This document shows, in pieces, positions 20,541 through 64,000 of a stretch of 64,000 nt of DNA (within the stretch, counting starts at the first letter, position 1; each line of letters starts with the position of its first letter). Under the pieces are notes generated by a model, which was given only the letters and a program-made list of their open reading frames with translations, was not told the DNA's origin and ran no database searches. This DNA comes from an uncultured Gammaproteobacteria bacterium (GTDB lineage: Bacteria; Pseudomonadota; Gammaproteobacteria; UBA9214), in NCBI GenBank assembly GCA_963827755.1, contig CAWHCQ010000010.1, positions 1,999 to 65,998 of the forward strand, read 5' to 3'. A program made the position numbers and the translations under genes.

Positions 20541-20825
20541 ATGAGCCGTATCGTGAATTGTGTCGTCCTCAAGCGCGAAGCCGAAGGGCTGGAATCCGTC
20601 CCGCACCCGGGATCACTGGGTGAGCGCATCTACGAGAATGTTTCCGCGGAAGGCTGGAACAAGTGGCTGGAGCGCCTGACCATGATCATCAATGAGAATG
20701 GCCTGAATACCGGCGACAAACAAAGCGTGGAGCTGATCGAAAAGCACATGGTTGGCTTTCTGTTTGGCGAAGGCGATTTCGGCTCGGTCCCGGAAGGCTT
20801 CAAACCCCCGGGCGCCAAGAAGTGA
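20541..20825 (+). CDS. yggX: oxidative damage protection protein (Fe(2+)-trafficking, YggX family)
   Basis: Start at ATG 20541 after GAGGA. MSRIVNCVVLKREAEGL...GWNKWLERLTMIINE. The stop TGA lies in the first heptamer of element E1. Confidence 0.85.
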   Translation: MSRIVNCVVLKREAEGLESVPHPGSLGERIYENVSAEGWNKWLERLTMIINENGLNTGDKQSVELIEKHMVGFLFGEGDFGSVPEGFKPPGAKK

Positions 20826-21012
20826 GAAGTGAGAAGTGAAAGTGAAGAAGTGAAGAGTAAAGAGTGATTTGTAGCGAAAGCCGGACGTCCGTTCACTTCT
20901 CACTTCTCACTTCTCACTTCTCACTTCTCACTTCTCACTTCTCACTTCTCACTTCTCACTTCTCACTTCTCACTTCTCACTTCTCACTTCTCACTTCTCA
21001 CCTCTAACTTCT
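20822..21012. repeat. heptamer-hairpin element E1: degenerate (GTGAGAA)-type arm, spacer, 15 perfect + 2 degenerate TCACTTC units
   Basis: Left arm 20822-20867. Spacer contains the palindrome CGGACGTCCG (20882-20891). Perfect TCACTTC x15 at 20893-20997, then TCACCTC and TAACTTC. Confidence 0.95.
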
Positions 21013-22391
21013 ATTTTCAGCAGTGGCGCTACCACGATGTTCAGCGCCTGGTGCGCTGCACGCAGGGCCGCCTCGGCCTGTTCTGCCGTCGGCGCGCAGG
21101 CAAACATAAAGCCCAGGTAACTGCTGCCCTCCGGCAGTGGCACCAGTTCATAGCCTTCACGAATATTAATCAGGATCTCTTTTACAAACGGCACGGCTCG
21201 CGCCGCTGTAATCCCTTCCACACGCCGCATAATGCCGGCCTCGGCAATCGGAATCATCAGCACCCCTGCGGCACCGGTCTGCGCCTGCATTTCCAGTGGT
21301 TTCCCGGTCGCATGCGCAATCACCAGCGACTCGAGACTGTGTCCGGTGCCGTAGCTGAGCAGGCGGGCACATTCGCCGCCAATGGTGCGGCTGGCGACTT
21401 CAAGGACGATGCAGCCCTCATTTGATAATCGCAGCTCGGCATGCACCGGCCCCTCGCCCAGGCCAAGCGCCCTGCAGGCGGCTGTTACGCAGCTGACAAT
21501 TTTTTCCTGCCAGGCCTCGCTGTGGCGCGAGGGCGTAATGTAATAGGTTTCTTCAAAAAACGGCCCGTCCATTGGATCGGGCTTGTCAAAAATCGCCAGC
21601 ACCTTGAGGCTGCCCCCGCTTAACAAGCCTTCCAGCGCCACCTCGGGTCCCGCTACAAAGCGCTCGACCAGTACATGCGATGCCACAAATTCATCATCCT
21701 GGTCCTCGCCGGCGAGTATGTGCTGTATCCGTGCACAGGCGGCCAGCAACTGTTTCTGTGTATCAGCGCGGATTACCCCGCGACTGGCGGAAAGCGACAG
21801 GGGCTTTACCACGCAGGGAAATACCAGCCCTTCGAGCTGCGGCCCGAGCGGCCCGGCAAGGTTTACAAGGCGAAATTCCGGGACGCCGACCCCGGCCCTG
21901 GCCAGCACTTCGCGGGACAGGTCCTTGCGGTGTGAATAACGTGCGGCTTCGACGGGGTTATGCGGCAGTTCCAGTGCCGCTGCGATGCGACTCCCCAGCT
22001 CAACGGTTGTATCGTCAGTCGCCAGAACACCGCAGAAAGGACGTTGCCGGTTTGCGGCCAGCAACACGTCAACAGCAGCCGGATCAGACAGGTCCACGTG
22101 CAGGCCGCCGGCAAGTTCCCCGACCAGTGAGAATTTTCCCTCGGAGGCCACCAGTACATCCACCCCGTGGAGCCGTGCCGCCTCGAGAAACGCGGCTGTT
22201 CGATAACTGCCGGGGGGCGCGATCAGCAACAGGCGCGGAGTTGTTTGCACCGTTGTGGCCGTATTCTGAAAAGTCCCGAAAGCGTGCAAGGCGTGGTGTA
22301 TATCGACTGGAAGATCTGCCCAGTCAGACTGGATACGTGAACCGCGTTTTTTACTGCAGCCTGAACTAACAGCGATGCGGCACCCGGACAA
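20991..22391 (-). CDS. ATP-grasp domain-containing protein (substrate unknown); start uncertain
   Basis: ATP-grasp core: [73 protein letters not shown]. An in-frame GTG near 22250 ([14 protein letters not shown]) is a possible alternative start. The C-terminal ...EVRGEK and stop are encoded by E1. Confidence 0.7.
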
Positions 22392-25060: not shown

Positions 25061-25827
25061 AAACCGCATCAAGTTGTTGCGTTCACTGTACGTATGGCAC
25101 CGCTATATGGGGCTTACGGCTTCACTGTTTGTCGTCATGCTGACAATCACCGGCCTGGCGCTTGAACCACACTGAAGAACTGGGACTGGACTCCAGCAGT
25201 GTCCGCTCCGATACCCTGCTCGACTGGTATGGCATTCATGCGCCTGACATAAAGAACAGCTACCGGGCAGGTGCACACCGTGTCACTGAGGTCGGTGAAA
25301 ACCTGTACTGGGATACGCTGAAAATCCCCGGGCGTGGCAGCACCACTCATCGGCGCCGTTGAATATTCAGACCTCATCGTCATCGGCATCGATGGACCAG
25401 TTGCTGTTATTCACAACAGGAAGGAGAACTGATCGAACAGCTGGATAGTGCAACCGGGGTACCTTCCGGCATGCAGGCAATCGGGCTGACGGCGGATGGA
25501 AACCTGGCAATCAGGGCGGCGCAGGGTTATTACCGGACCAATGCCGATTTTATCGAGTGGCATCAAACCGAAAGCCTTGCTGCCACATGGGCACGCAGCG
25601 AAAAGCCGTCCCTGCAGTTTGAACAGGCATTAAAGACAAGCTGGCGCGGCACTGGTCTACCGCTGGAACGCGTCATGCTGGACCTGCATAGCGGCCGTAT
25701 CCTCGGCAGCTGGGGTGTCTACCTGGTGGATGCAGCCGCCGTCCTGTTCCTGATGCTGGCAGGCAGCGGCGTCTGGTTATGGGGCAAACGCCGCGCCAGC
25801 TGCCCGCCAGCACCGGGCGTAAAGTAA
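25044..25827 (+). pseudogene. PepSY-associated TM helix protein, about three frameshifts
   Basis: MTRRNKNRIKLLRSLYVWHRYMGLTASLFVVMLTITGLAL from ATG 25044. It continues in ORF 25162..25362 (NHTEELGLDSS...), then a third frame (GVAAPLIGAVEYSDLIVIGIDG), then ORF 25471..25827 (...LDLHSGRILGSWGVYLVDAAAVLFLMLAGSGVWLW). Confidence 0.6.
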
Positions 25828-25972
25828 AAAGTGAGAAGTAAAATGTAGTAGAGTTCCAGCGCAAAGCTGAACACCATCACTCTCACCTCTCACGTCTCAC
25901 TTCTCACTTCTCACTTCTCACTTCTCACTTCCCTTCACTTCTCACTTCTCACTTCTCACTTCTCACTTCTCC
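25819..25972. repeat. heptamer-hairpin element E2
   Basis: Short left arm GTAAAGTAAAAAGTGAGAAGTAAAATG. Right arm of ~12 TCACTTC-type units (25876-25972), with two perfect runs of 4. Confidence 0.9.
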
Positions 25973-35051: not shown

Positions 35052-35724
35052 GTCTTCACTTTAAATGGTTCCTGGCATTATCTGTGGCAGCACATGCCGC
35101 AGTCATGTTCGCCTGGGTAGCGCCGCTGCCCGACACCGGCAAACCGGGACAGGTTCTACTGCTGGATATCACGGAGCAAGCGGGCCAGAGCACACCCCTC
35201 GCAGCGACTGACGCTGCGAGCGGGCAGCGCCCGCCCGATACCACAGCAAAAGAGCCGGCTCCGCCGCATAAACCTGTTTCAGCAGGCCGCCGTGCAACCG
35301 CTGAACAGCCTCTCGGGGCAAGCACGGAGCCAGCGGACACCCGGCGATCAGATCCGGGCGATGCGGACAATACAAAATCCGGCCGCTGCGGCAACCCTTG
35401 CCGCGCAGCAGCCCCCGCCCCAGCCATGAAGAATCCGACCGGCACCTGCGCGACAGCGTGCTGCGACTGGTCACGCAGCGACTCAGCTACCCGGCCATTG
35501 CGCGTCGCAAGGGTTGGCAGGGGGTTGTCACCCTGGAACTGCATATCGAACCCGACGGCCTGATTTCAGACCTGCAGGTCAACGAGACGTCCGGCTACCC
35601 TGCACTGGACCACGCCGCGGTGAAATCACTGCAACTGGCCAGCATACCCGGTGCCGGAGCATGGCTGCATGGCCGGAGCATCGACATGCTGGTACCGGTT
35701 GAATATCGGCTGCTGGACAGCTGA
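35048..35724 (+). pseudogene. tonB: TonB family energy transducer, one frameshift
   Basis: N-terminal TM WFLALSVAAHAAVMFAW and a Pro-rich linker are in ORF 35048..35563. The TonB C-terminal domain YPAIARRKGWQGVVTLELHIEPDGLISDLQVNETSGYPALD is in ORF 35398..35724. Confidence 0.65.
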
Positions 35725-36297
35725 ATGGGCAACCGGCTCTCAAAGATATACACGCGCACCGGCGATGACGGCACCACCGGCCTTGGTGACGGTTCACGCG
35801 TTGCCAAGGACGATCCGCGAGTCGAGGCCATGGGTGCGGTTGACGAACTGAACTGCGCCATCGGGGTCCTGCTTGCCCATGAACTGCCGGTAGCTGTCCA
35901 GCTTTCACTGACCGGCATCCAGCACAGGCTGTTTGATCTCGGCGGCGAACTCTGCATCCCCGATACCAGCTGCATCACGGATGAACACGTTGCAGGGCTG
36001 GAACAGTTACTCGATGAACTCAATGCAGACCTGCCGGCCCTGAAGGAATTCATCCTGCCGGGCGGCTCCGCGGCCGCGGCGGCCTGCCACCTGGCCCGTG
36101 CCATCTGCCGTCGCGCCGAACGGCGTACCCACAGCCTCGGCAAGCAGGCAGGCATCAACCCGGCTTCCCTGAAATACCTGAACCGGCTCTCCGACCTGCT
36201 GTTTGTGATGGCCCGGCACCTGAACAAACAGGCCGGTGTAGCCGATGTTTTCTGGAAGCATGAAAAGAAAGGTGAGAGAGTGAGAAGTGAGAAGTGA
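35725..36297 (+). CDS. PduO-type ATP:cob(I)alamin adenosyltransferase
   Basis: 190 aa; IYTRTGDDGTTGL, DPRVEAMGAVDELN, FILPGGS. The last residues GERVRSEK and the stop are encoded by element E3. Confidence 0.85.
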   Translation: MGNRLSKIYTRTGDDGTTGLGDGSRVAKDDPRVEAMGAVDELNCAIGVLLAHELPVAVQLSLTGIQHRLFDLGGELCIPDTSCITDEHVAGLEQLLDELNADLPALKEFILPGGSAAAAACHLARAICRRAERRTHSLGKQAGINPASLKYLNRLSDLLFVMARHLNKQAGVADVFWKHEKKGERVRSEK

Positions 36298-36489
36298 AGA
36301 GTGAAGAAGTGAAGGTGAAGAATACGGAAGAAGTGAAAAGTAAGATGCTTAAGAATGATTTTCGTGTACTTCACGTGGATTCCGTGGCTATTACTACTTC
36401 ACTCTTCACTTCTTACTTCTCACTCTTCACTTCTCTTCACTTCTCACTTCTCACTTCTCACTTCTCACTTCTCACTTCTCACTTTCTCA
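36272..36489. repeat. heptamer-hairpin element E3 with a half core (TTTTCGTGTACTTCACGTGGATTCCGTGGCTAT, 36359-36391)
   Basis: Left arm 36272-36322 (GTGAGAG/GTGAGAA/GTGAAGA units). Right arm 36393-36489, ending in 5 near-perfect TCACTTC units. Confidence 0.93.
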
Positions 36490-37409
36490 AGAATTCCGCA
36501 CAAACGTTCAACCCCGTCCAGTATCCGCGGCGTTTGCCGCACCAGCAGTTCCCGCTGGATTGCGTACAGCTGGTTTGATTTCACCGCGGACAGCTCCGGC
36601 CAGCGGCGCCACGCCTCCAGCATGCTGTTATCACCGGCATCGACAGCGGTAACGATGACATCCGGATTGGCAACGAGCACGGCCTCGATGTCGATTTGTG
36701 GCGCCAGTGCCGGCAGTGCCGCAAAGACATTGCGCCCGCCGCATAACTGCATCACGTCACTGACCAGGTGTTCACCGTTCAAGGTCATCAGCGGGTTTTC
36801 CCATACCTGGTAAAACACGCCGACTTCAGGGCGTCGTGCATAGCGACTGCGCAGCCCTTCAAGCCGCTGTTCAAATGCAGCCGCCTGTGCCCCGGCTGCC
36901 GTACCTGTGGCAGCCAGCTCGCCCAGCTTCCTGAGCGTGACCGCGATATCCTCCAGCCGGCGTGGTTCGGAGAGAAACACGGTCATCCCGAGTGACTGCA
37001 GGCGCCGCACCTGCCGATCCGGGTTGCCGCTCTGCCAGGCAACCACCAGGTCCGGCTGCAGGGCAAGTACGGCCTCCATGTCAAGGCTGCCACCGTCACT
37101 GATGCGCGGAAGCGTTTCTGCATTCGGCGGGTAGTTACTGTAGGCGGACACACCGACGATGGAACTGCCTGCACCGGCGGCAAACAGCAGTTCCGTGATG
37201 TGCGGCGACAGGCTGACGATACGCCGCGCGGGATGCTGCAGTACGACCTGCTGCCCTGCATCGTCGCTCACCCGGATCTCCGGCCACGCCGGCGTACTCG
37301 ACCAGCCGGTCATCAACAACAGGAATAGGACAGGCAAATACCATGTCCAGCCCGCATTGCTGTATAGGCAAAACTGATGCTTGAAGGATTTTTCTGAATT
37401 TAAAAACAT
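36465..37409 (-). CDS. periplasmic cobalamin/iron-chelate binding protein (BtuF-like); start uncertain
   Basis: RRIVSLSPHITELLFAAGAG, PDLVVAW, NPDVIVT are cluster-A binding-protein motifs. The C-terminal ...EKVRSEK and stop are encoded by E3. The ORF is open to 37481. Confidence 0.7.
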   Translation of the reverse strand: MFLNSEKSFKHQFCLYSNAGWTWYLPVLFLLLMTGWSSTPAWPEIRVSDDAGQQVVLQHPARRIVSLSPHITELLFAAGAGSSIVGVSAYSNYPPNAETLPRISDGGSLDMEAVLALQPDLVVAWQSGNPDRQVRRLQSLGMTVFLSEPRRLEDIAVTLRKLGELAATGTAAGAQAAAFEQRLEGLRSRYARRPEVGVFYQVWENPLMTLNGEHLVSDVMQLCGGRNVFAALPALAPQIDIEAVLVANPDVIVTAVDAGDNSMLEAWRRWPELSAVKSNQLYAIQRELLVRQTPRILDGVERLCGILEKVRSEK

Positions 37410-37656
37410 GCAGACCTGACCATTGCACGAGCCGGGATCGATGATAACGGCCTGAAAACTCCTCATCGGCGCTCCGGGCATCCTGCCTCCCGCGACACTT
37501 GTGCGTCCTTGTACATCGGCCAGTTCCCGGAGGGAGAAGGGATTCTCTTTTGCTATGACGAGTGATGTGTCATCTCCTGTGTACTATTAATATGACAAAC
37601 GGCTTTCCTGGATGCGTTATAATCCCGCGTCCCAACAGCAGACACAAGCAGGAACA

Positions 37657-40851: not shown

Positions 40852-41520
40852 GTGAAAAACGCACTTCTTCTTGTATCCCTCTTGCTGGTACTCACGGGCA
40901 ACGCGGTCGCCGAAACCCGCTATATCAGCGACCGCCTTGAAATCACCATGCGCAGCGGCAAGGGTACCGCCTATGGCATTACCCGTATGCTGCGCAGCGG
41001 CACACCGGTTGAGGTACTCGATGTCGACAAAGACTCCGGTTACAGCCATGTACGCACCAGCAGCGGCAAGGATGGCTATGTGCTTTCCCGCTTCCTGATG
41101 AAGGGCCAGGCCGCACGCGACCTGTTGGCGACTGCCGAAAAAAACCTTGCCGAAATGGAACTCGAGAACAGCAAGATGGCCGCCACGATTGCCGCACTCA
41201 CACAGGAGAAGAACGCACTCGATAAGAGCCTGGCCGCCCTGGATGGCGAAGCCCGCAACGTCAGCCAGGAACTCTCCGAGATCAAGCGCACCGCCTCAAG
41301 CGCCCTTGCCCTCGACTCCGAGAACAAGAACCTGAAAGGCCGGGTAGTGTCACTGGAAAGGCAGCTGCAGACCCTGCACCAGGAAAATGAAAGCCTCAAG
41401 GACCGGACTGCGCGTGACTGGTTTATGGTGGGTGCCGCCGTAGTACTGCTGGGGATTATTACCGGACTGATCATTCCCCGCATCCGGTTCCGCAAGAAGG
41501 CCGCCTGGGATACGTTTTGA
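40852..41520 (+). CDS. SH3 domain protein with coiled coil and C-terminal TM (TIGR04211/YgiM-like)
   Basis: 222 aa; signal peptide; RYISDRLEITMRSGKGTAYGITRMLRSGTPVEVL; long coiled coil; C-terminal TM WFMVGAAVVLLGIITGLII. Confidence 0.75.
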   Translation: MKNALLLVSLLLVLTGNAVAETRYISDRLEITMRSGKGTAYGITRMLRSGTPVEVLDVDKDSGYSHVRTSSGKDGYVLSRFLMKGQAARDLLATAEKNLAEMELENSKMAATIAALTQEKNALDKSLAALDGEARNVSQELSEIKRTASSALALDSENKNLKGRVVSLERQLQTLHQENESLKDRTARDWFMVGAAVVLLGIITGLIIPRIRFRKKAAWDTF

Positions 41521-41525
41521 AAAAA

Positions 41526-41684
41526 GGTGAGAAGTGAGAAGTGAAAGTGAAAAGTGAAAAGTGAGGAGTGAAAGTGAAGAAGCGGGGTGAAGTTGGCTGT
41601 TACGTCGATAGCGAACCACTCATCTATTCTCACTTCTTCACTTCTCACTTCTCACTTCTCACCTCTCACTTCTCACTTCTCACT
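41526..41684. repeat. heptamer-hairpin element E4 (no GTGGATTCCGTGG core)
   Basis: Left arm 41526-41592 (GTGAGAA x2, then GTGAAAG/GTGAAAA/GTGAGGA variants). Spacer 41593-41626. Right arm 41627-41684. Confidence 0.93.
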
Positions 41685-43359
41685 CATCCGTTACGCAGCC
41701 CTCGGATGCATTCCTGACAAGCTTGATGTACTTGAACAGCGTGCCGCTTGCAGCCTTGTAGGGCGGCATGCTCCAGTCCTTGCGGCGCTGCTCCATCTCG
41801 GCGTCACTGACGGCTACGGACAGGAGCTTTGCTTCTGCATCGATGGTGACAAGGTCGCCGTCACGCAGCAGCGCAATCGGGCCGCCCTCCTGCGCCTCCG
41901 GGACGATATGGCCGATAATGAAACCGTGCGAACCGCCTGAAAAACGGCCGTCTGTCAGCAGCGCCACATCTTCACCGAGTCCCGCGCCCATGATTGCCGA
42001 GGTCGGCGTCAGCATTTCCGGCATGCCCGGACCGCCCTTGGGGCCCTCGTAGCGAATGACAACCACGTCGCCCTTGTTGATGCGGCCGTTTTCCAGGGCC
42101 TCGAGCATGGCCTCCTCGGCATCGAATACCTTCGCCGGCCCGCTGAACTTGAGGCCTTCCTTGCCGGTGATCTTTGCAACCGAACCGCCCGGTGCGAGGT
42201 TGCCCTTGAGTATCTGTATATGGCCGGAGGGCTTGATCGGTTTGTCAAGTGCGTGAAAGACATCCTGGCCCGGCTTGAGCCCCGGCAGATCCTGCAGGTT
42301 CTGCGCCACTGTTTTCCCGGTCACCGTCAGGCAATCACCCTCGATAAATCCCTCGGCCAGCAGGTATTTCATGACTGCCGGGGTGCCGCCCGCATTATGC
42401 AGGTCCTCCATGACGTATTTTCCACTGGGCTTCAGATCAGCCAGGAACGGCACCCGGTCACTGACGCGCTGGAAATCATCGATACCGAGCGGCACATTGA
42501 CGGCACGCGCCATGGCAATCAGGTGCAGCACGGCATTGGTCGAGCCGCCCAGCGCCATGATGATCACCATGGCATTCTCGAACGCCTGGCGCGTCATGAT
42601 GTCACGCGGCTTGATGTCCTTTTCCAGCAGGTTAAGGATCGCCTTGCCGGCATTGAAACATTCCTCCAGCTTGGCCGGATCTTCCGCCGGCGTTGAAGAA
42701 CTGTAGGGCAGCGACATGCCCATGGCTTCGATGGCCGAGGCCATGGTGTTGGCGGTATACATGCCGCCGCAGGCACCGGCACCCGGGCAGGCGTTGTCGA
42801 CAATGTGATGACGCGTCTCTTCATCGATCTTTCCGGCAATGAATTCACCGTAACTCTGGAATGCCGACACGATATCCAGTGACTGGTTCTTGTAATGGCC
42901 GGGTCGAATGGTCCCGCCATAGACCATCAGTGACGGCCGGTTGAGCCTGCCCATGGCGATTAAACAACCGGGCATGTTCTTGTCGCACCCGGGAAGTGAA
43001 ATATTGGCGTCATACCATTGCGCACACATCACCGTCTCGATCGAATCCGCAATCAGGTCGCGCGACTGCAATGAATAACTCATCCCGTCAGTACCCATGG
43101 AGATGCCATCGCTGACCCCGATGGTGTTGAAGCGCATACCGACCAGACCGGCCGCCTGCACGCCTTCGCGCACACGTGCGGCGAGATCGTTGAGATGCAT
43201 ATTGCAGGTATTGCCCTCGTACCAGACACTCGATATTCCGACCTGTGCCTTGTCCATGTCTGCGGCGGTCAGGCCGGTGCCGTGCAGCATGGCCTGTGAT
43301 GCTCCCTGTGATTTTGGCTGGGTGATGCGGGCGCTGTAGCGGTTCAACTGCTTGGTCAT
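41680..43359 (-). CDS. ilvD: dihydroxy-acid dehydratase
   Basis: 559 aa; [30 protein letters not shown]. The stop codon is the TGA of the last E4 unit. Confidence 0.95.
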
Positions 43360-48846: not shown

Positions 48847-49668
48847 ATGGCAGAAAGCAGCGTGCAGCGACAATCCGGGCAGGTCATCAAGGCACTGCAA
48901 ATTACAGATCTGCACCTGTTTGCAGGCAGTGAAGGAACGCTGGTCGGATTAAACACCGAACAATCACTGGAGGCCGTCGAGGCACAGATCAGGGCAAACG
49001 ATCTGCCCGCCGACCTGATTCTTGCCACCGGTGACCTGGTGCATGACGGTACAGAGGCGGCCTATCAACGTTCATTTTCACACCTGGCAAGTTTTGGATT
49101 ACCGGTATATTGCCTGCCGGGCAACCATGATGAACTGCAGGCCCTGAAAGCAAGCGCCAATGGCGGTTTAATCAACTACGTGGAACATTGCCACCATGGC
49201 AACTGGCATTTCATATTCCTGGACTCCACCATTCCCGACAATGACGGTGCCCATCTGACCAGGGAATCCCTGCAGATACTGGAAACACACCTGCAATCCG
49301 CACCCGATGCCCACACACTCGTATGCCTGCATCACCAGCCGGTGAAAATGGGCAGCCAGTGGCTCGATACCATGGCACTGGATAACCCGGATGAATTCTT
49401 TGCCATCATCGACCGCTATCCACAGATCCGCGGCATCCTCTGGGGACATGTACACCAGCAATATGACGGCATGTATAAAAACATCCAGATGATGTCCTCG
49501 CCGTCAACCTGTATTCAGTTTCTGCCCAAGAGCAAGGAATTTGCACTGGACAACGCGGCACCGGGATACCGCTGGCTGGAACTGCACCCGGACGGCCGAA
49601 TAGAAACCGGTGTAAACCGGATCGCCAGCGTCACCGGCAGTGTCGACATGGCCTGCAACGGCTATTAG
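48847..49668 (+). CDS. cpdA: 3',5'-cyclic-nucleotide phosphodiesterase (CpdA-like metallophosphoesterase)
   Basis: 273 aa; LQITDLHLF, ATGDLVHDG, LPGNHD, VCLHHQP, GHVHQ. Confidence 0.8.
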   Translation: MAESSVQRQSGQVIKALQITDLHLFAGSEGTLVGLNTEQSLEAVEAQIRANDLPADLILATGDLVHDGTEAAYQRSFSHLASFGLPVYCLPGNHDELQALKASANGGLINYVEHCHHGNWHFIFLDSTIPDNDGAHLTRESLQILETHLQSAPDAHTLVCLHHQPVKMGSQWLDTMALDNPDEFFAIIDRYPQIRGILWGHVHQQYDGMYKNIQMMSSPSTCIQFLPKSKEFALDNAAPGYRWLELHPDGRIETGVNRIASVTGSVDMACNGY

Positions 49669-49677
49669 AACACTGTC

Positions 49678-49826
49678 AGAAGTCCTGAGAAGTGAGAAGT
49701 AAGCAAGTACACAGCCAGGTGACTGTTTCTGAATGTAATGGCCACGGAATCCACGGATGCACACTTAAAACTAAAGTCATTAACTGACTTTTCACTTCTC
49801 ACTTCTTCACTTCTGACTTCCGTGGC
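49678..49826. repeat. heptamer-hairpin element E5 (short arms) with a half core ATGGCCACGGAATCCACGGATG (49739-49760)
   Basis: Left arm CAGAAGTCCTGAGAAGTGAGAAGTAAGCAAG. Right arm TTTCACTTCTCACTTCTTCACTTCTGACTTCCGTGG. Confidence 0.85.
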
Positions 49827-49861: not shown

Positions 49862-51079
49862 CTACTGAACCAGCTGGTTCAAATCAAAAATCGGCAGCAG
49901 GATCGCCAGCACAATCACCAGCACCACCGCACCCATCAACAGTATCAGCACGGGCTCGAATAGCCCCAGCAAGGCGGCGATCAGCGTTTCGATTTCACGC
50001 TCCTGGTTGATGGCCGCACGCTCCAGCATTTCTTCCAGCTTGCCGCTGGCTTCGCCACTGGCAATCAGGTGCACCGTCATGGGCGGGAAGTAGCCGCTTC
50101 TCTCCAGGGCTGAGGCAATACTTGCACCCTCACGTATGCGTGCAGCGGCCTCGGTAACGGCCTCACGCATGGGCATGTTGGACATCACCTGCGCAGAAAT
50201 ACGCAAGGCCTCCAGCACCGGCACGCCACTGGCCGTGAGGATACTCAGGGTCCGGGCAAATCGACCGGTATTCAGGCCACCGACCAGCCGGCCGATCAGC
50301 GGCAGCCGCAGCAGAAACCGGTGAAAACGCCTGCGGTTTGCGTCGTAGCGCAACAGGTAGGTGAAGCCGGCGACGCCCAGCATAATCAATACGATGAGTA
50401 TCAGTCCCCATTCGCGCAGGAAATCGCTGACGGCAATCAGCCCCCGGGTCAGGCCCGGAAGATTCTGCCCGATATTGTCAAACACCTGTACGACCTGCGG
50501 CACCACGTAGGTCATCAAGCCGCCGACAACCAGGACGGCAACCAGTGTCAGCATGGCCGGGTAAAACACCGCCAGTTGAATCTTCTGGCGCAGCTGCTGG
50601 CGACTCTCGGTGTAATCGGCGAGGCGTTCCAGCACCCTGTCGAGGTGACCCGATTGCTCGCCGGCCTCGACGGTTGTCCGATACAGCTCGGGAAAGACAT
50701 TCCTGAAATCCGACAGGCCCGCTGCCAGCGTATGGCCCTCCATGACACGTGAGCGAACGGCCAGTAATATTCTTTTCAGTCGCTGATTTTCAGACTGCTG
50801 CGAAACAGCGCGCAGGCATTCTTCCAGTGGCAGACCGGCACGCACCAGCGTCGCGGTCTGCCGGGTCATCAGCGCGAGGTCTGTTGCACTGATACCCCGC
50901 TGCAGAAATGATGGCCGGCCGCGACGAGTCGTCTCGCGCTGTATGACCTCGTTGACCTCGAGCGGGATCCAGCCCTGGTCGCGCAATTGCTGGCGTACCT
51001 GGCGCGGGGCATCACCTTCGATGACGCCTTTTTTCTCACGGCCGGACTTGTCCAGCGCCTTGTATTCAAAGGCACCCAT
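49862..51079 (-). CDS. gspF: type II secretion system inner-membrane platform protein GspF
   Basis: 405 aa; MGAFEYKALDKSGREKKGVIEGD; two GspF repeats; three TM segments. Confidence 0.9.
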   Translation of the reverse strand: MGAFEYKALDKSGREKKGVIEGDAPRQVRQQLRDQGWIPLEVNEVIQRETTRRGRPSFLQRGISATDLALMTRQTATLVRAGLPLEECLRAVSQQSENQRLKRILLAVRSRVMEGHTLAAGLSDFRNVFPELYRTTVEAGEQSGHLDRVLERLADYTESRQQLRQKIQLAVFYPAMLTLVAVLVVGGLMTYVVPQVVQVFDNIGQNLPGLTRGLIAVSDFLREWGLILIVLIMLGVAGFTYLLRYDANRRRFHRFLLRLPLIGRLVGGLNTGRFARTLSILTASGVPVLEALRISAQVMSNMPMREAVTEAAARIREGASIASALERSGYFPPMTVHLIASGEASGKLEEMLERAAINQEREIETLIAALLGLFEPVLILLMGAVVLVIVLAILLPIFDLNQLVQ

Positions 51080-57946: not shown

Positions 57947-59204
57947 ATGAACCTGTCCGAACTTAAACTGAAACCGGCTGCCGAGCTGGTTGAAATAGCA
58001 CAACAAATGGGCGCAGAGGGTACCGCGCGCTCCAGAAAACAGGACATCATCTTTTCCATCCTCAAATCGCATGCAAAAAAAGGCGAGGATATTTTCGGCA
58101 GCGGTGTTCTGGAAATACTGCAGGACGGGTTCGGTTTCCTGCGTTCTGCAGACAGCTCCTACCTCGCGGGCCCGGATGATATTTACGTATCTCCAAGCCA
58201 GATCAGGCGTTTCAGCCTGCGTACCGGCGATACCGTGGATGGAAAGATACGGCCGCCGAAGGACAGTGAACGTTACTTTGCATTGCTCAAGGTCGATGCA
58301 ATCAACTACGAGAAACCTGAAAACGCCAAGAACAAGGTTGCCTTTGAAAACCTGACGCCGCTCCACCCCAATAAAAGACTGGTACTGGAACGCGGCAACG
58401 GCAGCACCGAAGACATTACCGCTCGCATCATTGACCTGGTCGCACCCGTGGGCACTGGGGCAACGCGGCCTGATCGTGTCGCCGCCCAAGGCCGGTAAAA
58501 CCATGCTGCTGCAGAATATCGCACAATCAATCGCATCGAATTACCCGGACGTGTACCTGATTGTGCTGCTGATCGACGAGCGTCCCGAGGAAGTCACCGA
58601 GATGTCGCGCTCGGTAAAGGGCGAAGTGGTGTCCAGCACCTTTGACGAACCGGCAAGCCGGCATGTACAGGTCGCCGAAATGGTCATCGAGAAGGCGCGC
58701 CGCCTGGTAGAACACAAGCACGACGTCGTCATCCTGCTCGACTCCATCACCCGTCTCGGCCGCGCCTACAATACCGTCGTACCTTCATCCGGCAAGGTAC
58801 TGACCGGCGGTGTCGACGCCAATGCGCTGCAACGCCCGAAACGCTTCTTCGGCGCCGCACGCAACGTCGAGGAAGGCGGCAGCCTGACCATCCTGGCAAC
58901 CGCGCTGGTCGACACCGGTTCGCGCATGGATGACGTCATCTACGAGGAGTTCAAGGGTACCGGCAACCACGAGATCCACCTGGAGCGCAGGATCGCCGAA
59001 AAACGCGTCTATCCCGCGATCAACCTCAACCGCTCCGGCACCCGCCGCGAAGAGCTGCTGACCGACCCGAAAGAGCTGCAGAAGATGTGGATACTGCGCA
59101 AGCTGCTGCACCCGATGGACGAGCTGGCCGCCATGGAATTCCTGCTCGACAAGCTGAAATCAACCAAGAGCAATGCACAGTTCTTTGAATCGATGAAGCG
59201 GTGA
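57947..59204 (+). pseudogene. rho: transcription termination factor Rho, split by a single +1 frameshift in a G4 run (probably a sequencing artefact)
   Basis: ORF 57947..58498 holds the N-terminal and RNA-binding domains ([15 protein letters not shown]...DLVAPVGTG). ORF 58431..59204 holds [22 protein letters not shown] and the rest of the ATPase. Removing one G from GGGG 58457-58460 gives an uninterrupted APVGTGQRGLIV. Confidence 0.9.
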
Positions 59205-59462
59205 GAGCGGTGAAGTAGCGTGAGAGTGAAGTGAGAAGTGAGAAGTGAAAAGTGAAGAGTGAAGAGTGAGAAGTTAAGAGTAATGAGCGACGGTCCAGTA
59301 ATAATCAGGCTCCCTAATGCCCGGTTTAATTTTTCGTGTTCTTCCGTGGATTCCGTGGCCATTAAGGTTTTATCTCTCCCTACTCGTACTTCTCAGCTTA
59401 TTCACTCTTCACCCTTATCACTTCACCTTTCACTCTCACTCCTACTTCTCACTTCTCACTTC
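59200..59462. repeat. heptamer-hairpin element E6 with a half core TTTTCGTGTTCTTCCGTGGATTCCGTGGCCAT (59331-59362)
   Basis: Left arm 59200-59287 (12-13 GTGAGAA-type units, 2 perfect). Right arm ~59380-59462 (degenerate, 2 perfect units). Confidence 0.93.
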
Positions 59463-60555
59463 CAAGATTCCGCAACCGGTTCATCCGCAACTCCAGCGGC
59501 GGGTGCGTCGCCATCAGGCTGCTGGACTTCTCCCTGAAGTTCCTGAACGGGTTGACAATGAACATGTGCTGCGTCGCCCGGTTGGCCCCGGCAAACGGGC
59601 GCGCCTGGGTCGCCAGCTTTTCCAGTGCGGATATCAGGCCTTGCGGGTGTCGCGTCAGGCGCACGCTGGTGGCGTCTGCAAGAAATTCCCGCTGCCGGGA
59701 TACCGCCATTTGCACCAGCAGGGCAAAGATCGGCGCCAGTGCGGCAAACGCCATCAGGGCAATCACCAGGAATGCCGCCCCCCCGCCCGCACGCCCGGAG
59801 CGGCGTGAGCGCCCGGAAAAATACAGCGAACGCAACGCGCCGTCGCTCACCAGCGCAATCAGGCCGACGATGACGCCCACCGCCGTCGCATAGCGGATAT
59901 CCCAGTTGACGATATGCCCCATCTCGTGGCCGATCACCCCCTGCAGCTCTTCGCGGTTGAGGGTATCCAGCAGGCCCCGGGTAACCCCGATGGCCGAGCG
60001 TGCCGGGCTCATTCCGGTGGCAAAGGCATTCAGCGCATCGGTCTCGATCACGTAGACACGCGGCTTGCGGATGCCCGCGGCAATCGCCATTTCCTCCACC
60101 ACGTTGTGCAACTGCGGCGCCTCGGCCGCGGACACTTCCGCGGCACCGGTCAGGCGCAGCACAATCCGGTCACCGACACGAAAGGTTATCCACGACCAGA
60201 GGGCGCCGATGACGAGCAACACCAGCGCGCACCAGATTCCCCAGCGGCTGGCGAACCAGATGTCCTCGACACCGGCAGGGACGACACCCAGCACCAGCTG
60301 CAGGGTCCAGCCCAGCAGGTATCCGAGGACCACGAGAATGAAAAGCAGGAACAGCACCAGCCGGCGAGTGGCCTTTTGATTGGCGCGCGCCGCGGCCAGG
60401 AAATCCGTGCGCCGCAACACCTTGTTGACCATGCGCGGACTTTCCTGCCAGTTGCTTTGCAGCGGGGCGCCGCACTGGCGGCAGGTGCTGGCGTGCGCGC
60501 GATTTGCCGCGGCACATTCAGGACACGGCTTGTTGTGTGAGGATGTCATCCGCAA
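59449..60555 (-). CDS. M48 family zinc metallopeptidase (HtpX-like) with an N-terminal zinc-ribbon
   Basis: 368 aa; CPECAAANRAHASTCRQCGAPL; TM helices; HEMGH. The C-terminal ...NLGSEK and stop are encoded by E6. Confidence 0.8.
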   Translation of the reverse strand: MRMTSSHNKPCPECAAANRAHASTCRQCGAPLQSNWQESPRMVNKVLRRTDFLAAARANQKATRRLVLFLLFILVVLGYLLGWTLQLVLGVVPAGVEDIWFASRWGIWCALVLLVIGALWSWITFRVGDRIVLRLTGAAEVSAAEAPQLHNVVEEMAIAAGIRKPRVYVIETDALNAFATGMSPARSAIGVTRGLLDTLNREELQGVIGHEMGHIVNWDIRYATAVGVIVGLIALVSDGALRSLYFSGRSRRSGRAGGGAAFLVIALMAFAALAPIFALLVQMAVSRQREFLADATSVRLTRHPQGLISALEKLATQARPFAGANRATQHMFIVNPFRNFREKSSSLMATHPPLELRMNRLRNLGSEK

Positions 60556-60639: not shown

Positions 60640-61206
60640 TTAACGCAGATCAACCCCGGGTATCGCCGCCTCGGCTTCCGGCACTTCGAAGTACGTCGCC
60701 TCCCTGAACCCGAACATGCCGGCAATGATATTGGAGGGGAATTCCTGCACGCCGTTATTGAGCGCCATCACGCTGTCATTGTAAAACTGCCGGGAAAAGG
60801 AAATCTTGTTTTCTGTCGCACTCAATTCTTCCATGAGGCGGGCAACGCTCTCGTTGGCCTTCAGGTCAGGGTAGTTTTCCATCAGGGCAAACAGCTTGCC
60901 CATGGCGCCCCCGAGCAGGGTCTCCGCCGCAATCGCCTCTTCCGTACTGCCGGCAGCGACCGCCTGGTTACGCGCCTGGATGACCTTTTCCAGGGTCTCC
61001 TGCTCGTAGGACATGTAGTCCTTCACCACTTCCACCAGGTTGGGAATGAGGTCATGCCGCCGTTTCAGCTGCACATCGATCTGCCGCCAGGCATTCTTCA
61101 CCTGGTTGCGCAAGTTCACCAGGCGGTTGTAAAGCAGCATGCCCGCCAGGGGGATGCCGATGATGATTGCTACGATGATCCAGCCGAATATTTCCATTTT
61201 AAACAC
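60640..61206 (-). CDS. lemA: LemA family protein
   Basis: 188 aa; N-terminal TM; YNRLVNLRNQVKNAWRQIDVQLKRRHDLIPNLVE. Confidence 0.88.
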   Translation of the reverse strand: MFKMEIFGWIIVAIIIGIPLAGMLLYNRLVNLRNQVKNAWRQIDVQLKRRHDLIPNLVEVVKDYMSYEQETLEKVIQARNQAVAAGSTEEAIAAETLLGGAMGKLFALMENYPDLKANESVARLMEELSATENKISFSRQFYNDSVMALNNGVQEFPSNIIAGMFGFREATYFEVPEAEAAIPGVDLR

Positions 61207-61218
61207 CTCTGGTAAACA

Positions 61219-61432
61219 GGTGAAAAGTTAGAAGTGAAGAGTGAAAGTGCAAGACCATGATAGCCACGGAATCCACGAAAGAACACGGAAAAACTATTCT
61301 TAAGGTATTTATCTTTTCGTGTTCTTTCGTGGATTCCGTGGCCATTACACTTCACTTCTCACTTCTCACCTCTCACTTCTCACTTCTCACTTCTCACTTC
61401 TCACTTCTCACTTCTCACTTTTCACTTCTCCC
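61219..61432. repeat. heptamer-hairpin element E7 with the complete palindromic core (61260-61345)
   Basis: Left arm 61219-61253. Core ATAGCCACGGAATCCACGAAAGAACACGGAAAA / ~20-nt loop / TTTTCGTGTTCTTTCGTGGATTCCGTGGCCAT. Right arm of 11 TCACTTC-type units (61352-61428), 6 of them perfect in a row. Confidence 0.95.
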
Positions 61433-62705
61433 GGTCCAGGGCACGATAGCCGATATCCGTCCGATAAAAGGCATCAGGCCAGTGAATCCGCTCGACACAG
61501 GCATAGGCCCTGTCCCTTGCCTCGCGAATAGTAGCACCCAGGGCACAGACACACAGCACACGCCCGCCGCTGGTCACGATGGCGCCGTTTTGCTCCTGCG
61601 TACCGGCATGGAATACCTTGCAGTCGTCATCATCGACTGGCGGCAAACCCTCGATGACATCGCCCTTGCGGTACTGTTCCGGATAGCCGCCGGCGGCCAT
61701 GACCACGCCCAGCGCGGTACGCTCATCCCATTGCACATCGACATCGTCGAGCTCGCCGTCAACCGTGGCCAGGCAGAGTTCGACCAGGTCGGACTGCAGG
61801 CGCAGCATCACCGGCTGGGTTTCCGGGTCGCCGAAGCGGACGTTGAACTCGAGCACCTTCGGCGTGCCATCGGCCGCAATCATCAGGCCGGCATAGAGAA
61901 AACCGGTAAACTCATTGCCCTCTTCCGCCATTCCGCGGATCGTCGGCCGCATGACCTCCCGCATGACCCGGCGATGAATGTCCGCTGTTATGACCGGGGC
62001 CGGTGAGTAGGCGCCCATACCCCCGGTATTCGGACCTGCATCACCGTCATCACGCGCCTTGTGGTCCTGCGAGGTCGCCAGGGGCAGGCAGTGGGTGCCA
62101 TCCACCATCGCGATAAAGCTGGCTTCCTCGCCTTGCAGGAATTCCTCAATCACGACGCGGTGCCCGGCCTCGCCGAACACGTTCCCGCCAAGCATGTCGC
62201 TGACGGCCGCGATCGCTTCATCCACGGACTGCGCCAGGATAACGCCCTTGCCCGCGGCCAGCCCGTCGGCCTTCACCACGATCGGGGCGCCCTGCTCGCG
62301 GATATAGGCAGCGGCCTTGTCGATATCGGAAAAACTGGCGTACGCGGCCGTGGGAATCCCGTGGCGGGCGAGAAAGTCCTTGCTGAAGGACTTGGAACCT
62401 TCCAGCTGCGCGGCCGCGCGGGTGGGGCCGAAGCAGCGCAGGTCGGCGGCCCTGAAGCGGTCGACGATACCGGCGACCAGCGGAACCTCGGGGCCGACAA
62501 TGGTCAGCCCGACTTCATTGTCCGTGGCGAAGGCAAGCAGGGCATCGATGTCGGTGGCCTCGATCGCGACGTTCTCCACGCGCGGCTCCCGTGCAGTCCC
62601 GGCGTTGCCCGGCGCCACGAACACCGTATCCGCCCGCGAGGATTGCGCCGCCTTCCATGCCAGGGCGTGTTCGCGCCCGCCACTGCCGATGATAAGAATA
62701 TTCAT
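61422..62705 (-). CDS. purD: phosphoribosylamine-glycine ligase
   Basis: Start at ATG 62705 after AAGGAAAAAA (MNILIIGSGGREHALAWK). The ORF-track extension to 62786 is a translation of E8. The C-terminal ...LDREK and stop are encoded by E7. Confidence 0.93.
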   Translation of the reverse strand: MNILIIGSGGREHALAWKAAQSSRADTVFVAPGNAGTAREPRVENVAIEATDIDALLAFATDNEVGLTIVGPEVPLVAGIVDRFRAADLRCFGPTRAAAQLEGSKSFSKDFLARHGIPTAAYASFSDIDKAAAYIREQGAPIVVKADGLAAGKGVILAQSVDEAIAAVSDMLGGNVFGEAGHRVVIEEFLQGEEASFIAMVDGTHCLPLATSQDHKARDDGDAGPNTGGMGAYSPAPVITADIHRRVMREVMRPTIRGMAEEGNEFTGFLYAGLMIAADGTPKVLEFNVRFGDPETQPVMLRLQSDLVELCLATVDGELDDVDVQWDERTALGVVMAAGGYPEQYRKGDVIEGLPPVDDDDCKVFHAGTQEQNGAIVTSGGRVLCVCALGATIREARDRAYACVERIHWPDAFYRTDIGYRALDREK

Positions 62706-62726
62706 GGTTTTTTCCTTTGGAAAAAA

Positions 62727-62886
62727 GTGAGAAGTGAGAAGTGATAAGTGAAGGGTGATAGAGTGAAGCGGAAGAACGCAGTACAATTACCTCTTCGATT
62801 TACCTTTTACTTCTCACTTCCGTACACTTCTCACTCTAACTTCTCACTTCTCACTTCTCACTTCTCACTTCTCACTTCTCACTTCA
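62727..62886. repeat. heptamer-hairpin element E8, lying between purH and purD
   Basis: Left arm 62727-62778 (GTGAGAA x2, GTGATAA, GTGAAGG...). Spacer with a GCGGAAGAACGC remnant. Right arm includes 6 perfect TCACTTC units (62844-62885). Confidence 0.93.
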
Positions 62887-62888
62887 TT

Positions 62889-64000
62889 TCAATGCCGAAA
62901 ATGCCGCATCCCGGTAAACACCATCGCAATATCATGTTCATCGGCCGCGGCAATCACCTCGTCATCGCGCATGGAGCCACCCGGCTCGATCACGGCGGCG
63001 ATACCGGCCTCGGCGGCCTGGTCGATGCCGTCGCGAAAGGGAAAGAAGGCATCCGAGGCCATCACCGAGCCCTTCACCTGCAGGCCTTCATCCGCGGCCT
63101 TCATCGCGGCCACTCGGGCGCTGTACACCCGGCTCATCTGGCCGGCGCCCACGCCGATGGTCATCTGGTCTTTACAATAGACGATGGCGTTCGACTTGAC
63201 GAACTTGGCCACCCGCCAGGCGAACAGCAGGTCCTGCATCTCCGCCGCCGTCGGGGCGCGTTGGGTGACCACCTTGAGTTCGGCTTGCGTGATCCTGCCG
63301 AGATCACGGTCCTGCACCAGCAGACCGCCGTTGACCCGCTTGAAATCCAGGCCGGCTTCGGATTCGGCCTCCCAGCTGCCGCATTCCAGCACGCGCACGT
63401 TCTTTTTTTCGGCCAGCACCGGCAAGGCGGCCGCCTCGATGATGGGTGCAATGATCACCTCGACAAACTGGCGCTCGATAATTGCCCTGGCGGTTGCCGC
63501 ATCCAGCGGCCGGTTGAAGGCAATGATGCCGCCGAACGCCGAGGTCGGGTCCGTCTTGAAGGCGCGCTCGTAGGCCTCGAACGGGCTGCCGGCCAGGGCA
63601 ACGCCGCAGGGATTGGCATGCTTGACGATCACGCAGGCCGGCGCCTCGCCGAATGATTTCACGCACTCCAGCGCGGCATCGGTGTCGGCCACGTTGTTAT
63701 AGGACAGTTCCTTGCCCTGGATCTGCCGGGCCGTGGACACCGAGACCTCGCCCTGCGCGTGTTCGACATAAAAAGCGGCACGCTGATGGGGATTCTCCCC
63801 GTAGCGCATGGTCTGCACCTGTCTGAACTGGAAATTGATGGTGCGCGGAAAGGCGCTGCGCTCGCCCGCACTGTCGATGGCCCCGAGGTAATTGGCTATC
63901 GCACCGTCATAGCGGGCGGTGTGCTCGAATGTTTTCACGGCCAGTGAATAGCGCGTGGCATCCGTGACCGCAGCCATCGTTGTGCTGCATCTCTTCCAGC
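62889..64000 (-). CDS. purH: bifunctional AICAR formyltransferase / IMP cyclohydrolase, C-terminal ~370 codons (5' end beyond the window; possible frameshift near 63975)
   Basis: [18 protein letters not shown] ... [12 protein letters not shown] ... [13 protein letters not shown] ... FTGMRHFRH. Upstream of 63977 the purH-like sequence (LEEMQHNDG) is in another frame. Confidence 0.93.

Follow-up and report, generated by a model that had tools for sequence, protein, structure and literature searches.

In the 64,000-nt stretch of DNA analysed here (the window), several unrelated genes end within or beside tandem arrays of the heptamer GTGAGAA, which raises the question of whether these arrays terminate the genes and lend them new C-terminal residues, and of how repeats came to lie flush with coding ends. 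Eight loci of the window share one layout, in which a left array of (GTGAGAA)n (F arm) and a right array of (TTCTCAC)n (R arm) enclose a spacer of 25-160 nt, the arms being tandem heptamers of 15-170 nt. TRF detected paired period-7 arrays at the eight loci, and the two-unit probe GTGAGAAGTGAGAA, with at most one mismatch allowed, matched the window 56 times against 0.02 matches expected. The assembly to which the window belongs (G000; 2.85 Mb in 52 contigs, 92% complete) contains about 20 paired elements, 10 of them on the single 73-kb contig (C10) that carries the window. A ninth element lies just outside the window. An assembly artefact was rejected, since no G000 contig ends in an array and the same junctions are seen in the closest relative (G012), in G001 and in metagenome contigs.

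The eight elements adjoin 14 gene 3' ends. In E1 (20817-21013; F arm 20817-20854, R arm 20892-21013) the first unit provides the TGA of a yggX-like gene (20823-20825), and the stop of an ATP-grasp gene (20991-20993, minus strand) lies in the R arm. At E2 (25827-25972) the first R-arm unit contains the SYLF stop (25963-25965, minus strand), while the TAA of a PepSY fragment (25825-25827) is borderline. E3 (36261-36490) consists of an F arm at 36261-36345, a spacer with a CGTGGATTCCGTGGC core and an R arm at 36396-36490, with the PduO stop at 36295-36297 (plus strand) and the BtuF-like stop at 36465-36467 (minus strand). The ilvD stop (41680-41682, minus strand) falls in the first unit of the R arm of E4 (41525-41685), and the stop of an SH3-protein gene (41518-41520) precedes the start of the other arm by 7 nt. 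E5 (49675-49820) has short degenerate arms, and both the cpdA-like stop (49666-49668) and the gspF stop (49862-49864) are outside them. In E6 (59200-59463) the rho TGA (59202-59204) is at the F arm start and the R arm includes the M48 peptidase stop (59449-59451, minus strand). E7 (61220-61432) lies between purD and the lemA start; its R arm holds the purD stop (61422-61424, minus strand). E8 (62723-62890) separates purH from the purD ribosome-binding site, and the purH stop (62889-62891, minus strand) lies 4 nt before the first clear unit. Nine of the 14 stops are thus clearly within an arm (YggX, ATP-grasp, SYLF, PduO, BtuF-like, IlvD, Rho, M48 and PurD), two are borderline relative to the arm calls (PepSY at -2 nt, PurH at -1 nt) and three are outside (SH3 by 7 nt, CpdA by 9 nt, GspF by 44 nt). 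An earlier note on this DNA had counted 10 of 13 stops within an element, which is close to our recount, and its claim that the arms supply a working stop codon holds for several genes. Nor are most copies elsewhere in the genome far from stops: when ORFs were called mechanically, without a gene finder, 22 of the 47 arms detected in G000 terminated an ORF of 80 codons or more, and a further 13 had such an ORF within 30 nt.

The capacity of an arm to end any gene follows from its period. Each unit holds a TGA and seven is coprime to three, so that any entering frame stops within 21 nt, after at most six codons; every 21 nt a frame runs through all unit offsets once, and what it adds to the protein is therefore always a suffix of EVRSEK. 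In agreement with this, and as the earlier note had proposed, the GTGAGAA-type arm at 36272-36318 has a TGA in all three plus-strand frames, while the R arm at 36441-36489 is open in all three and reads FSLLTSH. The open arm also accounts for the spurious FSLLTSH ORFs, since plus-strand ORFs such as 36355-36813 traverse it. Entry of genes through the GTGAGAA-type arm only, another claim of that note, was borne out in other genomes, where this arm came first in 48 of 48 adjacent arm pairs and none was reversed; because the polarity is fixed, a gene always enters through the arm that stops it. A reversed hairpin at one further locus (L058) was rejected as a chance match within a gene.

We then asked whether native C termini had been truncated or replaced, by setting each of 11 gene ends against 9-18 orthologues; these came from as many as 30 relatives, which are kin and not independent samples. 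Five of the 11 proteins have kept the native C terminus, two carry a single substitution and four have 3-11 new residues. YggX ends in PPGAKK here and in 13 of 13 element-free relatives, with TAA or TAG as stop there and the TGA of the first unit here. Similarly, IlvD ends in GCVTDE here and in most element-free orthologues, Rho in FFESMKR and PurH in GMRHFRH here and in nearly all relatives, and the SH3 protein in WDTF in all of them, including here; for YggX, IlvD and Rho the arm begins at the native stop position. PurD (native YRAxxRE(T/E), here YRALDREK) and SYLF (native KFT(K/R)LNK, here KFTKLEK, an N-to-E change) are of unchanged length. M48, natively ending in RNLGND, ends in RNLGSEK here and in RNLGEK in G012. 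In the ATP-grasp protein the native IEDRR, followed by 0-6 residues, has become IEVRGEK, with VRGEK as the repeat-coded tail. The native BtuF-like protein ends in IL(E/D)xVR plus 1-6 variable residues, so EKVR is native and SEK alone is new, and PduO, natively ending in W(K/Q)H(E/D)R(S/N)K, ends here in WKHEKKGERVRSEK, with 8-11 extra residues. All six C termini quoted in the earlier note are in the sequence exactly as given there. Its view that six proteins had received their tails from the repeat stands for PduO, ATP-grasp, M48 and, for SEK only, BtuF-like; the REK of PurD and the LEK of SYLF are native save for one substitution each. Part of the apparent repeat at the junctions is native coding sequence.

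The pduO/btuF junction offers a direct look at a strain without the element. On a metagenome contig (L238), PduO is 99% identical to that of the window, the flanks are 97% and 88% identical at the DNA level, and a cluster of REPs stands where the window has the heptamer element. The exact PduO sequence of the window matched no protein on record. Its PduO ends in WKHGR, while its BtuF-like frame reads ILEKVR and then continues for 17 residues through a REP that offers no in-frame stop. At the level of sequence, this contig confirms which residues are native and shows that the junction is strain-variable; it likewise illustrates what an inserted palindrome lacking three-frame stops does to a protein end. 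The repeat-coded residues themselves also vary. The PduO tail is GERVRSEK in G000 and QVRSEK in G012, and metagenomic orthologues of 70-89% identity end in VRSEK, VKSKK, VKK, VNSKK or VKSER, which indicates that such tails are old at this locus without their sequence being conserved. Since they differ between close relatives, they look like fast-changing by-products and not like functional tags. A C-terminal tag common to this set of proteins (a degron, or a sorting or interaction motif) could be read into the fact that 37 of 100 arm-ending ORFs across phyla finish in EK and 12 in VRSEK; however, the sequence of the unit is by itself enough to produce these endings, roughly half of the ORFs sampled do not look like real genes, half of the adjoining proteins retain native ends, and the tails vary among G000, G012 and the metagenomic orthologues. 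We therefore regard a tag function as very improbable.

The array is not confined to this lineage. An exact four-unit probe found it in at least 118 loci of Acidobacteriota, Gemmatimonadota, Bacteroidota, Planctomycetota, Verrucomicrobiota, Gammaproteobacteria and other groups. Across those phyla 100 of 173 arms end a long ORF, but a Pfam check of 20 random cases gave only about nine credible genes; the raw count, inflated by antisense ORFs in GC-rich genomes, was dropped as evidence and we relied on the low-GC subset. Of 42 arms in loci below 50% GC, where long ORFs can be trusted, 15 terminate an ORF of 150 codons or more; ORFs of this size stop within 30 nt of the arm in six further cases and farther upstream in 12.

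What lies between the arms elsewhere points to the nature of the element. Where the spacer is 390-600 nt long it encodes, in either orientation, a PF05635 protein (23S rRNA intervening-sequence protein), as found at six of six loci tested in other phyla (L052, L053, L067, L097, L112 and L114), and a gene-bearing copy with GTGAGAA/TTCTCAC arms around PF05635 is also present in G012 (L233). The orthologous site of G000 has arms with REPs and a CCACGAAA core as cargo, and no match to the PF05635 gene was found anywhere in this 92% complete genome. Given this absence and spacers of 25-160 nt, the window elements are best seen as gene-less derivatives: they have the paired inverted 7-nt arrays and share their unit with gene-bearing copies, but have no gene between the arms. 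The association is also apparent when approached from the gene. Among 30 loci picked from 400 Pseudomonadota genomes by the PF05635 gene alone, period-7 arrays lie no farther than 260 nt from the gene in 27 and flank it on either side in 18, with units that vary by lineage (GTAGGCA, GTGAGTA, GTGAGAT, GTGATTT, GTGACTG, CTGAGTG and others). Next to these other units, 25 of 34 flanking ORFs have their stop no more than 20 nt from where the arm begins; moreover, the btuF-like gene of several relatives ends at the TAG of a GTAG-headed REP. Together, these two observations indicate that abutment on gene ends is not special to the GTGAGAA element. Our literature search found nothing relevant that links PF05635 to heptamer arrays or deals with the GTGAGAA unit itself.

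How, then, did the arms come to touch the genes? In relatives that have no repeat there, the same junctions show very short spacers. Only 0-7 nt separate yggX from the ATP-grasp gene and 9 nt separate pduO from btuF, the SH3/ilvD and purD/lemA gaps measure about 30 and about 15 nt, and the purH/purD gap can be as small as 12 nt. With native spacers of 0-31 nt at several junctions, any hairpin placed there must abut both genes. The earlier note had suggested either insertion at or into native stop codons or selection for elements that abut coding ends. The short spacers make such selection unnecessary, and simple insertion is insufficient at E1 and E3, where both convergent genes are fused to the arms and no displaced native tail is left; one insertion alone cannot yield this, and intervening bases must have been lost. 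The arms come equally close to functional sequence on 5' sides, where the F arm of E7 ends 9 nt from the lemA Shine-Dalgarno and that of E8 abuts the one of purD. We thus consider it probable that the hairpins are gene-less copies of a widespread PF05635-bracketing element residing in tiny gene-end spacers, that their junctions arose by insertion followed by erosion, and that the tails are by-products. The element would insert into a spacer of 0-30 nt, and slippage on short purine-rich matches (GAAG, GTGA, TGA) would later remove bases between array and gene; the last codons may sometimes be lost too, in which case the array would supply or replace the stop. This erosion step is one that we infer from the junctions. 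Because the peptide added is short and capped (a suffix of EVRSEK), fusion of an arm to a gene would be nearly neutral. Microhomology as the driver was set aside: the last 12 nt of element-free orthologues match the periodic heptamer at 6.0 positions against a background of 5.47 (P about 0.05), too weak a difference to carry an argument.

Alternatively, the element might integrate site-specifically, at or just after stop codons or at a GTGA/TGA target, so that flush junctions would be the direct product of integration and not of erosion. In several low-GC genomes (L047, L071, L085, L100 and L105) the arrays indeed start 0-1 nt after a native TAA, TAG or TGA, and the same junctions carry elements in species with only 70-90% protein identity, although common descent could account for such recurrence. 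A first-unit excess is also seen in low- and mid-GC loci, whose long ORFs can be relied on: the first unit provides 20 of 33 in-arm stops where 39% would be expected; the share is 40% in high-GC loci, whose ORFs are mostly spurious. This excess counts for insertion followed by erosion, yet fits targeted insertion at stop codons equally well. However, in E7 and E8 the arms abut ribosome-binding sites, on the 5' side of a gene, at E4 left and E5 they lie 7-44 nt from the stops, and the GGAA(G)TGA string shared at M48 is read in a different frame from the native stop. By inspection, the junctions are fused to coding sequence with no evident target-site duplication. No recombinase is associated with the element, and PF05635 proteins are not known to break DNA. 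Altogether, direct site-specific integration appears quite improbable, and insertion with subsequent erosion remains the account we favour.

A hairpin at a stop codon could also be regulatory, tuning or lowering the upstream gene (by stalling at a structured stop, by RNase III cleavage of the stem or by tmRNA tagging) and uncoupling convergent transcripts. Folding of the E3 region (36262-36492) predicts one long hairpin of -106 kcal/mol (z -11), a very stable stem whose paired part contains both the PduO and the BtuF-like stops. A search of 35600-37600 for Rho-independent terminators (a GC-rich stem followed by a T/U run) found none, and this absence counts in favour of a regulatory role. Likewise, E7 and E8 sit within the co-directional purH-purD-lemA string, which transcription must cross, so the elements cannot be strong terminators. 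Liang, Rudd and Deutscher are said to have found in 2015 that REP hairpins no more than about 15 nt from a stop reduce translation in E. coli, which would favour such a role. In Coxiella, RNase III processing of the stem of a MITE (QMITE2), removing the stop codon, has been proposed (PMC5896051). Against regulation, the adjoining genes are functionally unrelated, arm lengths and junctions vary between close relatives, and the L238 strain, despite its nearly identical PduO, lacks the element at pduO/btuF. A regulatory function therefore seems unlikely, if less so than site-specific integration.

A further possibility, compatible with insertion and erosion, is that the stop within each unit is itself under selection: arms losing it would give long read-through tails and be purged, and the three-frame cassette would let the element persist at gene ends. 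We counted single-base unit variants once per locus over the 118 loci. The stop is lost by a transition at T2 or A4; these two positions contributed 5 locus-counts of transitions, the remaining five positions 75 (P = 6e-7). Changes at G3 mostly keep a stop, being to A (TAA) in 20 loci and to T (which creates TAG) in 4, with a change to C in 1, and A4-to-G occurs in 2 loci as compared with 12 for A6 and 27 for A7. The best-kept positions of the unit, T2 and A4, are hence those whose transitions destroy the stop, which hints at selection for it but does not amount to proof. In addition, among the units flanking PF05635 genes, 13 types (14 including GTGAGAA) contain a stop when read inward but not outward and 3 when read outward but not inward, and the 17-residue junk tail of the BtuF-like protein in L238 exemplifies what a repeat without an in-frame stop can do. 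On the other hand, G1 is conserved too although it lies outside the stop, and the unit-variant data, which fit selection for the stop, fit a GTRA binding site equally well. Ten of the 14 inward-stop units have a GTGA core and are not independent, so the ratio collapses to about 5 to 3. A general stop-first polarity over independent heptamer families was accordingly set aside as an argument. Units without a stop also exist, both as eight types flanking PF05635 genes with no stop on either strand and, by inspection, as GGGAATC of Xanthomonas (PMC4692102), and TGG-core variants occur at L241, L252 and L263. Selection on the stop in each unit is thus a tentative and less than probable idea, which may stand beside the insertion and erosion account.

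In practical terms, the stops in heptamer arms are a mostly harmless by-product of a widespread repeat and not a new way of making proteins. The combination of a period of 7, coprime to 3, with a single TGA limits the damage of a fusion to six residues, and slippage of the heptamer can alter the last residues of a protein between strains. For gene callers this means dozens of proteins with spurious or fast-changing -EK or -SEK ends and many false FSLLTSH-type ORFs. The stop-defining bases, as the best-kept part of the unit, provide a measurable signature. A side result may outweigh the rest, namely that the abundant and functionally unexplained PF05635 family is almost always bracketed by inverted heptamer arrays; this bracketing gives a handle on the role of the family and on the origin of the heptamers of Xanthomonas, Nostoc and Beggiatoa.

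Several known systems resemble the elements described here. The closest in its arithmetic is the TAACTGA heptamer of marine Beggiatoaceae, cyanobacteria and some Bacteroidetes, which has stops in three frames in the forward direction and is translatable in reverse; it occurs in 2-6 copies, mostly just upstream of start codons, was interpreted as a translational regulator, and overlaps the stop of the upstream ORF in 13-14 repeat sets (MacGregor 2015, PMC4679880). TAACTGA and GTGAGAA are alike in being 7-nt tandem units with a three-frame stop and, when rotated, TAACTGA becomes CTGATAA, which fits the [G/C]TGAnnn pattern seen here. They differ in that TAACTGA forms direct repeats (with one inverted case) near starts, whereas GTGAGAA forms inverted pairs, mainly at 3' ends; a link to PF05635 is not mentioned in the TAACTGA paper (PMC4679880).

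GGGAATC in Xanthomonas and GGGGA(C/T)T in Nostoc form abundant intergenic heptamer arrays (Rehm et al. 2015, PMC4692102). The Xanthomonas repeats include 70-75 convergent pairs able to form stem-loops and favour sense-strand positions no more than 50 bp from a stop codon, some overlapping the stop (PMC4692102). GGGAATC is G-rich and was studied as a former of G-quadruplexes, while GTGAGAA has no G run and so lacks a tract of at least three Gs per unit; also unlike GTGAGAA, GGGAATC contains no stop codon on either strand and cannot be a stop cassette, and no associated gene has been reported for it. As tentatively as for selection at the level of the unit alone, one may picture the heptamer hairpins, including those of GTGAGAA, GTGAnnn, GTAGGCA and CTGAnnn and perhaps TAACTGA and GGGAATC, as the conserved ends of one cross-phylum selfish family built on the PF05635 gene (23S rRNA IVS or Avd-like four-helix bundle). 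The T-R-A stop at positions 2-4 of most units would in that case be selected as a three-frame stop, allowing life flush at gene ends, in operons and in rRNA with little harm.

Overlap with gene ends is likewise a property of the Coxiella burnetii elements QMITE1 and QMITE2, which are hairpin-forming and non-autonomous and reach 1-50 bp into the C-terminal coding ends of functional genes (PMC5896051). A MITE donates residues there as well, EnhC gaining 33 aa, and RNase III processing and non-stop mRNA were discussed (PMC5896051). These MITEs have inverted termini of unique sequence with direct repeats instead of tandem heptamers, so their tails are not limited to six residues. In this genus the same convergent junctions are also occupied by REP/BIME elements with a GTAG head, whose TAG serves several relatives as the stop of the btuF-like gene. 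Such a REP is a single, short and imperfect palindrome of 20-40 nt with one potential stop in one frame, while the GTGAGAA arms are tandem and without the GTAG head, and do not class as REPs. Finally, the 23S rRNA intervening sequences with a PF05635 ORF have the same protein family between inverted arms as the gene-bearing heptamer copies, but the window elements are in mRNA spacers and not in rRNA, and are gene-less. Altogether, three-frame stops in heptamers and the overlap of repeats with gene ends are already known (PMC4679880, PMC4692102, PMC5896051), while the GTGAGAA unit, its inverted-array form, the six-residue limit on the tails and the link to PF05635 are new here.

Contig C10, which comprises the window and its flanks, carries 10 of the approximately 20 paired heptamer elements of the source genome, about half of them, on 73 kb of a 2.85-Mb assembly. 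None of the contigs of this genome ends in an array, and the concentration on C10 is therefore not an assembly effect. Two of these elements, E7 and E8, lie within the co-directional purH-purD-lemA string, with their arms 0-9 nt from the downstream ribosome-binding sites (at 61194-61220 for E7 and 62703-62727 for E8); transcription thus probably passes through both -100 kcal/mol hairpins. Among the 118 loci from other genomes found with a four-unit GTGAGAA probe, heptamer hairpins of unrelated unit (ATTTCAG/TGAAATC, GGTGCGT/CACGCAC and GAAGGCA/CTTCTGC) share genomes with the GTGAGAA type (L021, L035, L055 and others).

Other repeats also lie at gene ends of the convergent pduO/BtuF-like pair. 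In four relatives from the genus (L003, L005, L011 and L014), the BtuF-like gene terminates at the TAG of a GTAG-headed REP, and the C-termini of the proteins ending in this way are variable (..xL*). On the metagenome contig L238, which has a REP cluster in place of the element, the BtuF-like frame runs 17 codons through the REP. At L016, from a genome of another family in the same class (G019), an array of a different heptamer, (AGGCTAA)n, begins exactly at the stop of pduO; beyond this array lies a CCGTGTCCTTCCGTGGC core resembling the one in the spacers of the window.

Inverted period-7 arrays flank 27 of 30 genes of the PF05635 family (23S rRNA IVS protein), at loci drawn from 400 Pseudomonadota genomes (L239-L268); we found no published report of such bracketing. 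The array unit is lineage-dependent and mostly matches [G/C]T[G/A][A/G]nnn. Elements with PF05635 genes from different genera were also observed 3' of what seems to be the same gene, one ending in ..HGYxxPVAxE* (L246, L248, L261 and L268) and another in ..IASxKxxGxL* (L264 and L267); this repeated position suggests either long-term site conservation or a site preference. Finally, at one junction of the source genome (C18:15170-15577) and its counterpart in the closest relative, G012 (L233), the heptamer arms are the same, while they enclose a PF05635 gene in G012 and REPs with a CCACGAAA core in the source genome. Thus, the arms persist while their cargo turns over.
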